Assembly (NCBI RefSeq): GCF_000829235.1
Contig: NZ_AP012549.1
Location: forward strand, 990,001 to 1,022,000
Reading direction: 5' to 3'
DNA length: 32,000 bases
From: a cyanobacterium endosymbiont of Epithemia turgida isolate EtSB Lake Yunoko
GTDB taxonomy: Bacteria > Cyanobacteriota > Cyanobacteriia > Cyanobacteriales > Microcystaceae
Shown here: one piece after another, positions 8,956 to 9,208 of the stretch
Layout: each line of letters starts with the position of its first letter
How positions within the stretch are numbered: the first letter of the stretch is position 1
Position numbers and translations under genes: made by a program
The notes under the pieces: generated by a model
Told to the model about the DNA's origin: nothing
What the model saw: only the letters and a program-made list of their open reading frames with translations
Databases searched by the model: none

Positions 8956-9208
8956 ATGTCTCATAACGTCGTAAAAATTTACACCATTTGTATCGGCTGC
9001 ACTCAATGTGTTAGGGCTTCTCCCCTTAATGTTTTGAAGATAGATAGTCTTTTGGGATAGCTGCGGGGTTGGTCAGATTGCTTGATCTTCTTATATAGAA
9101 AACTGTATTGATTGTAAGCGACATCAAACAACCTGCCCGACTAATTTCTTTAGTGTATGTGTTTATTTATAGACATACACTGCTCTTGGTATGGGTTTTG
9201 CCTACTTA
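8956..9208 (+). pseudogene. psaC: Photosystem I iron-sulfur centre subunit PsaC, pseudogene
   Basis: The ATG frame gives [35 protein letters not shown] frame shifted by one nt gives [51 protein letters not shown]. Both are collinear with canonical PsaC ([80 protein letters not shown]). Lesions are one frameshift, two in-frame stops, cluster-ligand Cys->Ser (ACP->ASP), Cys->His (KRCE->KRHQ), and stop TAA->TTA. Confidence 0.92.

Follow-up and report, generated by a model that had tools for sequence, protein, structure and literature searches.

An old, neutrally decaying relic of psaC in the spheroid-body genome of the diatom Epithemia turgida

The genome of the cyanobacterial endosymbiont of the diatom Epithemia turgida contains a stretch that resembles psaC, the gene for the FA/FB iron-sulfur subunit of photosystem I (PSI), broken by a frameshift and stop codons. 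The locus raises the question of whether this copy is dead and, if so, for how long, the original prediction having proposed fairly recent inactivation. The genome (AP012549) is reportedly that of Nakayama et al. 2014; the window, that is, the whole stretch of it analysed here, is 32 kb long (Table 1). Our analysis indicates that positions 8956–9208 are almost certainly a non-functional relic of psaC, for which we infer the absence of residual function. We place the relic in a history of relaxed selection, neutral AT-biased decay, and slow deletion, to which we assign a probability of roughly 95%.

Table 1. Features of the window discussed in the text (positions counted from the first nucleotide of the window)
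Feature	Position	Strand	Evidence or remark
Cytochrome P450 relic, multiple frameshifts and stops	2162–3358	+	tblastn; intact in L069
SDR gene, intact, = BAP17498 of the E. turgida endosymbiont	6412–7176		identical protein
Relic of 233-aa hypothetical gene	7230–7791	-	tblastn; intact in SU2
126-aa ORF 5′ of psaC, intact, without Pfam family	8173–8553	+	ORF comparison
16-bp perfect inverted repeat, former psaC 5′ region	8823–8863	+	alignment
Decayed ribosome-binding site, AAAAAG (AAGGAG in SU2)	8940–8945	+	spacer and psaC alignments
psaC pseudogene relic, 81 of 81 codons alignable	8956–9208	+	tblastn, TIGR03048, codon table
In-frame 3-nt insertion (GTA) after codon 5	8971–8973	+	common only to E. 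adnata spheroid body
C21S (TGT to TCT), 4Fe-4S ligand cysteine lost	9019–9021	+	codon alignment
4-nt insertion (GATA/ATAG tandem duplication), +1 frameshift at codon 27/28	~9040–9043	+	tblastn, codon alignment
In-frame TGA, codon 41 (SU2: TCG)	9083–9085	+	codon alignment
C54H (TGT to CAT), second 4Fe-4S ligand cysteine lost	9122–9124	+	codon alignment
In-frame TAG, codon 70 (SU2: GGG)	9170–9172	+	codon alignment
1-nt T insertion (9206) between codon 81 and old stop	9206–9209	+	alignment
Former psaC terminator hairpin, 12-bp perfect stem, loop GTT, T-rich tail	9272–9298	+	folding, sequence
Relic of 210-aa NAD(P)H-binding (PF13460) gene, convergent with psaC	9368–9953	-	tblastn
DUF1997 gene, intact, = BAP17500	10187–10897	+	identical protein
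Relic of 576-aa ABC_ATPase (PF09818) gene	12086–13452	+	tblastn
Methyl-accepting chemotaxis protein gene remnant	14617–14998	-	tblastn
CheW gene remnant	15096–15497	-	tblastn
ORF identical to BAP17513	29679–30605		identical protein

A tblastn search of window positions 8801–9400 with PsaC recovered all 81 codons in two collinear HSPs lying in different frames (joint E = 3e-22), with 72% identity over codons 1–28 and 52% over codons 28–81. The relic opens with an ATG at 8956; codons 1–27 are in one frame and codons 28–81 in the +1 frame. Homology to PsaC is full-length, and the repaired translation matches the NCBIfam model TIGR03048 (E = 1.4e-29, 102.1 bits); even with the frameshift and stops conceptually repaired, it stays below the curated equivalog cutoff of 130.65 bits, whereas the intact PsaC of the free-living cyanobacterium SU2 scores 187.4 bits. 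The SU2 protein matches chain C of the PSI structure PDB 9l0a with 100% identity and has all eight cysteines; its gene was the reference for the codon-aware alignment by which the lesions were placed.

The alignment bears out the reading of this segment as a psaC pseudogene together with most of the damage first described. The frameshift predicted near codon 30 is a 4-nt insertion at codon 27/28, the in-frame TGA and TAG fall at codons 41 and 70, and the two replaced 4Fe-4S cysteines are those of C21S and C54H. PsaC carries two CxxCxxCxxxCP motifs, which supply the cysteine ligands of the FA and FB clusters; here six of the eight ligand cysteines are left, and no uninterrupted ORF of about 81 codons with a stop exists. 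The stop was said to have mutated to TTA; TTA does stand at 9206–9208 and the stop is lost, but the cause is the insertion of a single T, codon 81 being TAC at 9203–9205 and the old stop persisting out of frame as TAG at 9207–9209. The in-frame GTA insertion at 8971–8973 is an additional lesion that the earlier description did not include.

In a scan of reference genomes, the closest matches to the DUF1997 gene, which lies 1 kb 3′ of psaC, were from the spheroid bodies of R. gibba (84%), R. gibberula (81%), and E. clementina (80%), followed by the free-living "unicellular cyanobacterium SU2" (74%). Among free-living cyanobacteria, SU2 is the one most closely related to the spheroid bodies as a whole (bioRxiv 10.64898/2026.03.19.712447). 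In every spheroid body examined, psaC is dead at the syntenic site or deleted; it is intact only in SU2. A second outgroup, Rippkaea orientalis PCC 8801, has a psaC that is not syntenic with the UPF0182 gene, and no remnants of its neighbouring photosystem II (PSII) genes (psbEFLJ and ycf48) were found in the window.

The endosymbiont of E. adnata 19Bon2 (CP076462, locus L065) has a psaC relic 97.4% identical to that of E. turgida over 425 nt, with every E. turgida lesion present. Errors of sequencing or assembly in an intact psaC might have been suspected behind the frameshift and stops, since tandem duplications of 4 nt and changes of single bases can arise as errors; the E. adnata genome is, however, an independent assembly from a different species and laboratory, and because it shows identical lesions, sequencing error is excluded. 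Further against this explanation, whose probability we regard as negligible, the replacements affect two ligand cysteines and many residues that are conserved elsewhere, and four further spheroid-body genomes hold dead copies with extra lesions of their own. The shared lesions must also be older than the split between E. turgida and E. adnata, since all of them occur in both.

Comparison of the five freshwater spheroid bodies (E. turgida, E. adnata, R. gibba, R. gibberula, and E. clementina) separates old changes from later ones. The T inserted at the stop codon is found in all five and is lacking in both SU2 and the more distant lineage L069, described below. Also common to the five are K35G (which takes two nucleotide changes), A36V, E55K/Q, R66C, and A71T/K; D9A (D9T in E. 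turgida) and G33S are common to the four lineages with an alignable 5′ half. Frameshifts and nonsense codons inside the ORF, by contrast, vary by lineage in the codon alignment. In R. gibba the 5′ half of the relic is unalignable or lost, 13 nt have been inserted, and codon 53 reads TGA. In R. gibberula codon 40 has lost 1 nt and codon 63 reads TGA, while in E. clementina codon 16 reads TAA, codon 27 carries a +1 insertion, and codon 53 reads TGA.

Deeper loci were reached by a search with the UPF0182 protein, which yielded the marine E. pelagica endosymbiont (L068) and a lineage represented by two Logan assemblies (L069/L070) that branches below E. pelagica in a single-gene neighbor-joining tree. 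No psaC is detectable at the E. pelagica locus; 87 bp stand there in place of the roughly 1 kb that begins where the 126-aa gene ends and runs into the NAD-binding gene relic. The L069 relic has a 1-nt deletion at codon 6, C21Y, a stop at W31, a deletion of about 20 nt, and C51Y; it retains the original TAC-TAA stop and shares with the other relics only S4N, T45I, and R66C. Two of these three replacements are C-to-T-type transitions, which could be parallel.

No disabling frameshift or nonsense lesion common to all sampled lineages was found. Because the T insertion occurs in five of five freshwater lineages and is absent from L069, the first unambiguous disabling lesion belongs to the ancestor of the freshwater clade. 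The three shared missense changes, together with the published uniform lack of photosystems, suggest that selection had been relaxed before that ancestor.

Divergence between the relics also counts against a recent break. Among lineages it amounts to 0.17–0.23, against 0.12–0.19 at four-fold degenerate sites of five flanking intact genes, although raw divergence at such sites is a less than perfect measure of neutrality when the GC content is 33%. Since the relic has diverged at least as much as these sites, no constraint on psaC is detectable over the whole course of the radiation. The symbiosis has been dated to about 12 Mya (PMC5638926) and to about 35 Mya (PMC11070190).

These results bear directly on the proposal that psaC broke lately in the E. 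turgida lineage, which would account for the perfect terminator hairpin and for the fact that all 81 codons can still be aligned. Every lesion is present in E. adnata as well, and the loss of the stop and at least six replacements reach R. gibba, R. gibberula, and E. clementina; the relics differ from one another at a neutral level; and the symbiosis is millions of years old on either published estimate. The claim of fairly recent inactivation is therefore not upheld, and we consider it very improbable that any such late event occurred. The relic is old and neutrally decaying, not recently broken.

The hairpin on which that claim leaned is real: the original prediction described it as still perfect, and it has a stem of 12 bp with five G-C pairs, a loop of three nucleotides, and the tail TGTATTTTTA, giving the form of an intrinsic terminator (a G+C-containing stem-loop followed by a T-run). 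Its predicted RNA folding energy is -17.8 kcal/mol (z = -6.3). The orthologous 3′ segment reaches the same value in E. adnata (-17.8 kcal/mol), -14.6 for the functional gene of SU2, and -13.2 in E. clementina, where the stem has one G·U pair; in R. gibberula (-5.1) and R. gibba (-1.7) it folds no better than shuffled sequence. The structure is thus ruined in two lineages, and the segment is deleted in E. pelagica, so that conservation among relatives gives no sign of selection. Relative to SU2, the E. turgida stem has grown from 10 to 12 bp and two G·U pairs have become A-U; a hairpin stronger in a dead gene than in the functional one argues against reading it as a remnant of recent activity. 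Between the two close relatives, both with a perfect stem, the loop is inverted (GTT in E. turgida and AAC in E. adnata). The nearest intact gene 5′ of the hairpin ends about 720 bp away, at 8553.

Loop inversion is not confined to this hairpin. E. turgida and E. adnata were compared over 17 kb (97.8% identical), a perfect hairpin being defined by a stem of at least 8 bp and a loop of 3–10 nt. Twelve such hairpins occur in the 17 kb (mean of 4.6 in shuffles), and in five (7935–7953, 8823–8863, 9272–9298, 9507–9551, and 9852–9894) the loops of the two genomes are exact reverse complements, amounting to five loop flips in 17 kb at 2.2% divergence. At 8823–8863 the flipped loop is 9 nt long, and one stem pair is A-T in E. 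turgida and G-C in E. clementina. The repeats at 9507–9551 (20 bp) and 9852–9894 (18 bp) have perfect stems and lie within what remains of the NAD(P)H-binding gene convergent with psaC; neither the intact SU2 copy of this gene nor its relics in R. gibba, R. gibberula, and E. clementina contain them. Seven of nine adjacent bases at 9852–9894 differ from R. gibba, all of them creating pairing, and the pattern at 9507–9551 is similar. The alignments show that both repeats arose de novo, one arm having been rewritten in the common ancestor of E. turgida and E. adnata.

The window thus contains both clustered rewriting of an arm to the exact reverse complement, with length unchanged, and inversion of the spacer between close relatives. 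Together, arm homogenisation and spacer inversion are known to mark quasi-palindromes at which the DNA polymerase has switched template (PMC8794818; PMC8604942). Template switching during replication is the most likely mechanism by which inverted repeats are created or perfected, and loops flipped, in this genome, dead DNA included. It may further be that template switching is unusually active in the E. turgida/E. adnata lineage, where it would write perfect hairpins of 16–26 bp into decaying genes, keep or improve old terminator stems, and flip loops at a rate like that of point substitution; this broader proposal is tentative, and we rate its chances a little below even. With stems lost in sister lineages, improved, made de novo (perfect hairpins of 18–20 bp in the adjacent dead gene), and loop-flipped by mutation, a perfect stem is uninformative on age; in the E. 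turgida genome it is evidence of neither recency nor function.

A different possibility is that the locus is still useful: the relic might be recoded by programmed frameshifting or readthrough, its 5′ ORF (8908–9060) might yield a 50-aa peptide, or the segment, including its two hairpins, might act as a structured or regulatory RNA. The relic and hairpins have been present for millions of years, the stems are perfect in E. turgida and E. adnata and nearly so (one G·U) in E. clementina, and the pair that differs between E. turgida and E. clementina at 8823–8863 is compensatory. Such pairs are nevertheless accounted for, without selection, by the homogenisation of arms during template switching (PMC8794818; PMC8604942), and no Rfam family was matched anywhere in the window. 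Recoding and a small-peptide function are rejected on the neutral divergence of the relic, its lineage-variable lesions, and its decayed ribosome-binding site. Divergence at or above the four-fold-site rate counts against residual function of any kind, as do the variable positions of the lesions (the R. gibba 5′ half being unalignable and E. clementina having TAA at codon 16) and the deletion of the whole segment in E. pelagica; retained function is accordingly very unlikely.

Neighbouring housekeeping genes had been described as intact, and this is correct for UPF0182, SDR, the 126-aa ORF, DUF1997, and MlaE; these are, however, interleaved with at least six other gene relics, which with psaC lie within about 13 kb (2–15.5 kb of the window). 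The relics were found by tblastn with intact SU2 genes or, for the cytochrome P450, with the intact L069 gene. The 126-aa ORF is conserved in SU2 and in all spheroid bodies examined except L069/L070, in which no such gene was called. Other intact genes are the 3′ end of alaS and those for SxtJ-like and carbamoyltransferase proteins, a group-1-type sigma factor, DUF212, a polyprenyl synthase, a TPR protein, a rhodanese-domain protein, UDP-glucuronate decarboxylase, and UDP-glucose dehydrogenase.

A 97-nt "tRNA-Gln" called by ARAGORN inside the NAD-binding gene relic is a false positive, rejected because Rfam shows no family in the window. Concatenated stop-free fragments of at least 30 aa from intergenic positions 826–3144, 19142–20189, 21360–22353, and 23784–24934 gave nothing credible in Pfam, the search leaving out 10898–12085, 15498–16840, and 27312–29678; the intergenic stretches searched are too degraded or were never coding.

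Overall, the window has the traits of a spheroid-body genome (33–34% GC, low coding density, and many relics), with a GC content of about 33% (21–41% per kb) and about half of its length in ORFs of at least 90 aa; published figures for spheroid-body GC, coding density, and relics are given in PMC11131595. The organism is an obligate, non-photosynthetic, N2-fixing endosymbiont (spheroid body or diazoplast) of E. turgida. A non-photosynthetic rhopalodiacean endosymbiont had been predicted from the sequence, in agreement with the literature and with three of the four window proteins tested, which are identical to published proteins of the E. turgida spheroid body (EtSB) (BAP17498, BAP17500, and BAP17513). 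EtSB lacks most PSI and PSII genes, and RgSB lacks functional ones (PMC5638926); no rhopalodiacean endosymbiont has the proteins of PSI (eleven of them) or of PSII (PMC12903740). The sequence analysed here covers 32 kb, and the whole-genome lack of an intact psaC paralogue and of a functional PSI/PSII set is taken from published reports (PMC5638926; PMC12377750; PMC12903740).

The following history would connect these observations. Photosynthesis may have become dispensable when the host diatom supplied fixed carbon, and purifying selection on psaC would have ended no later than in the common ancestor of the freshwater lineages sampled, and probably earlier. Missense substitutions and the extra nucleotide at the stop codon were probably the first changes; each lineage would later have acquired frameshifts, nonsense codons, and deletions independently. 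The psaC relic would since have drifted at the neutral rate under AT-biased mutation, through point mutations and small indels, and would eventually be deleted, as has already happened in the more reduced endosymbiont of E. pelagica. Spheroid bodies lack transposases, yet their coding density is low (bioRxiv 10.64898/2026.03.19.712447), and the persistence of the psaC relic is attributed to the slowness of deletion in transposon-free, structurally stable genomes.

As a discovery the psaC relic matters little: with a published genome and a published phenotype, a dead psaC is in substance already known. The term "psaC" has no occurrence in the searchable texts of spheroid-body papers (a set that excludes the 2014 genome paper and the GenBank annotation), and the supplements of PMC11131595 and PMC5638926, which cover intact genes only, have no psaC entry. 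The locus illustrates that the lifestyle of an organism can be read from a single pseudogene; the analysis corrects the timing, the relic being old and neutral with E. pelagica as the end-point, and cautions that a perfect hairpin beside a dead gene is no molecular clock in the E. turgida lineage. Hairpin dynamics, a side observation, are possibly the sole new element; if they hold genome-wide, they would amount to a hitherto undescribed signature of mutation during the early decay of endosymbiont genomes, and would warn that in such genomes neither "intact" terminators nor compensatory changes in stems should be read as signs of function or recency.

Among known systems, template-switch mutagenesis offers the parallel for the hairpins: clustered substitutions, arm homogenisation, and inverted loops recur at five hairpins of the window, although the process has been described in yeast (PMC8604942), great apes (PMC7954356), and Proteobacteria (PMC5941160), and a limited literature search found no report of it in spheroid-body genomes. 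For psaC itself, the nearest precedent is the photosystem loss of EtSB and RgSB (Nakayama & Inagaki 2017, PMC5638926), which concerns the same genome and phenomenon, with photosystem genes absent or pseudogenised, about 100–150 annotated pseudogenes, and low coding density; biologically there is no difference, and the lesion-by-lesion history of psaC is added detail. The plastomes of non-photosynthetic (mycoheterotrophic or parasitic) plants likewise contain psaC pseudogenes after the loss of photosynthesis while housekeeping genes stay intact (PMC4958920; PMC7238169), but these are ancient organelle genomes of about 100 kb, in contrast to a 2.8-Mb endosymbiont chromosome early in reduction. 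UCYN-A, the nitroplast, is a related N2-fixing endosymbiont of the Crocosphaera group with a reduced genome. It has lost PSII only and retains PSI (PMC12377750; PMC11070190), as the original prediction had supposed, so that an intact psaC is expected there, whereas in E. turgida the gene is a relic.

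The psaC relic of the E. turgida endosymbiont is flanked in the window by six more gene relics (see table), and counterparts of all six are intact in SU2, a free-living relative with an intact psaC, or in lineage L069, an early-branching spheroid-body-like endosymbiont. Near position 2655, the cytochrome P450 relic differs by a 170-bp indel from L065 (the corresponding locus of the E. adnata endosymbiont; CP076462), with E. turgida having the shorter form. This indel illustrates how dead DNA is still being deleted.

ARAGORN called a 97-nt tRNA-Gln at 9697-9793; a search by Rfam found no tRNA anywhere in the window. 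The site falls within the relic of the NAD(P)H-binding protein gene and can be aligned to the SU2 coding sequence. Because the call has no Rfam counterpart and lies inside a dead protein gene, it is almost certainly spurious.

G+C content falls to 21-25% at 1001-2000, 11001-12000, 15001-17000, and 27001-29000. These four stretches contain no ORF of at least 90 aa, with the sole exception of a 134-aa SxtJ-like ORF (16841-17245) that overlaps the stretch at 15001-17000 in part. The Pfam search covered one of the four (1001-2000, as part of region 826-3144) and gave no match there. All four are presumably gene remnants decayed past recognition. The minus strand at 16841-19141 carries two intact genes, one for an SxtJ-like protein (PF19588) and the other for a carbamoyltransferase; in E. 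adnata and E. pelagica, the corresponding locus also has a small DUF5989 ORF. This small cluster is conserved, having been kept amid heavy gene loss.

Gene relics and perfect inverted repeats in the window; the last column marks hairpins whose loops are inverted relative to L065
Feature	Position	Setting	Loop inverted
Cytochrome P450 relic	2162-3358		
Relic of 233-aa hypothetical gene	7230-7791		
NAD(P)H-binding protein gene relic	9368-9953	minus strand	
ABC_ATPase gene relic	12086-13452		
Methyl-accepting chemotaxis protein gene relic	14617-14998		
CheW gene relic	15096-15497		
Hairpin	7935-7953		yes
Inverted repeat, 16 bp, G+C-rich	8823-8863	former psaC 5′ region	yes
Hairpin	9272-9298	former psaC terminator	yes
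Inverted repeat, 20 bp	9507-9551	NAD(P)H-binding gene relic, minus strand	yes
Inverted repeat, 18 bp	9852-9894	NAD(P)H-binding gene relic, minus strand	yes
Inverted repeat, 26 bp, 3-nt loop	11646-11700	AT-rich intergenic DNA downstream of DUF1997	

Both inverted repeats within the NAD(P)H-binding gene relic originated in situ in the ancestor shared by the endosymbionts of E. turgida and E. adnata, with no change in length; in each, a cluster of substitutions turned one arm into the exact complement of the other. Neither repeat was found in SU2 or in three other spheroid bodies. Such rewriting of an arm in place, as read from the alignments, is the signature of template switching.

The repeat in the former psaC 5′ region is perfect in E. 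turgida, E. adnata, and E. clementina and imperfect in SU2. At one position of its stem, E. turgida has A-T and E. clementina has G-C, a difference that may reflect either a compensatory change or independent homogenization of the arms. The repeat downstream of DUF1997 has imperfect arms in E. adnata.

Between the window and L065 (97.8% identity overall), the loops are exact reverse complements in five of the 12 perfect hairpins, all five located in dead or non-coding DNA. Each of the five amounts to a small inversion of the loop.

Other spheroid-body lineages differ at this locus. The spheroid body of E. pelagica, which is marine and more reduced, has deleted a segment of about 1 kb in which the psaC relic and its hairpins lay (L068, 14300-14386), and the SDR and DUF1997 genes, intact in E. 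turgida, are also gone. The spheroid-body-like lineage L069/L070 (Logan assemblies SRR28397362 and SRR28397344) is positioned below E. pelagica in a neighbor-joining tree of UPF0182. In this lineage, the P450 and SDR genes are still intact, and psaC is dead, with lesions of its own and the original stop codon still present.
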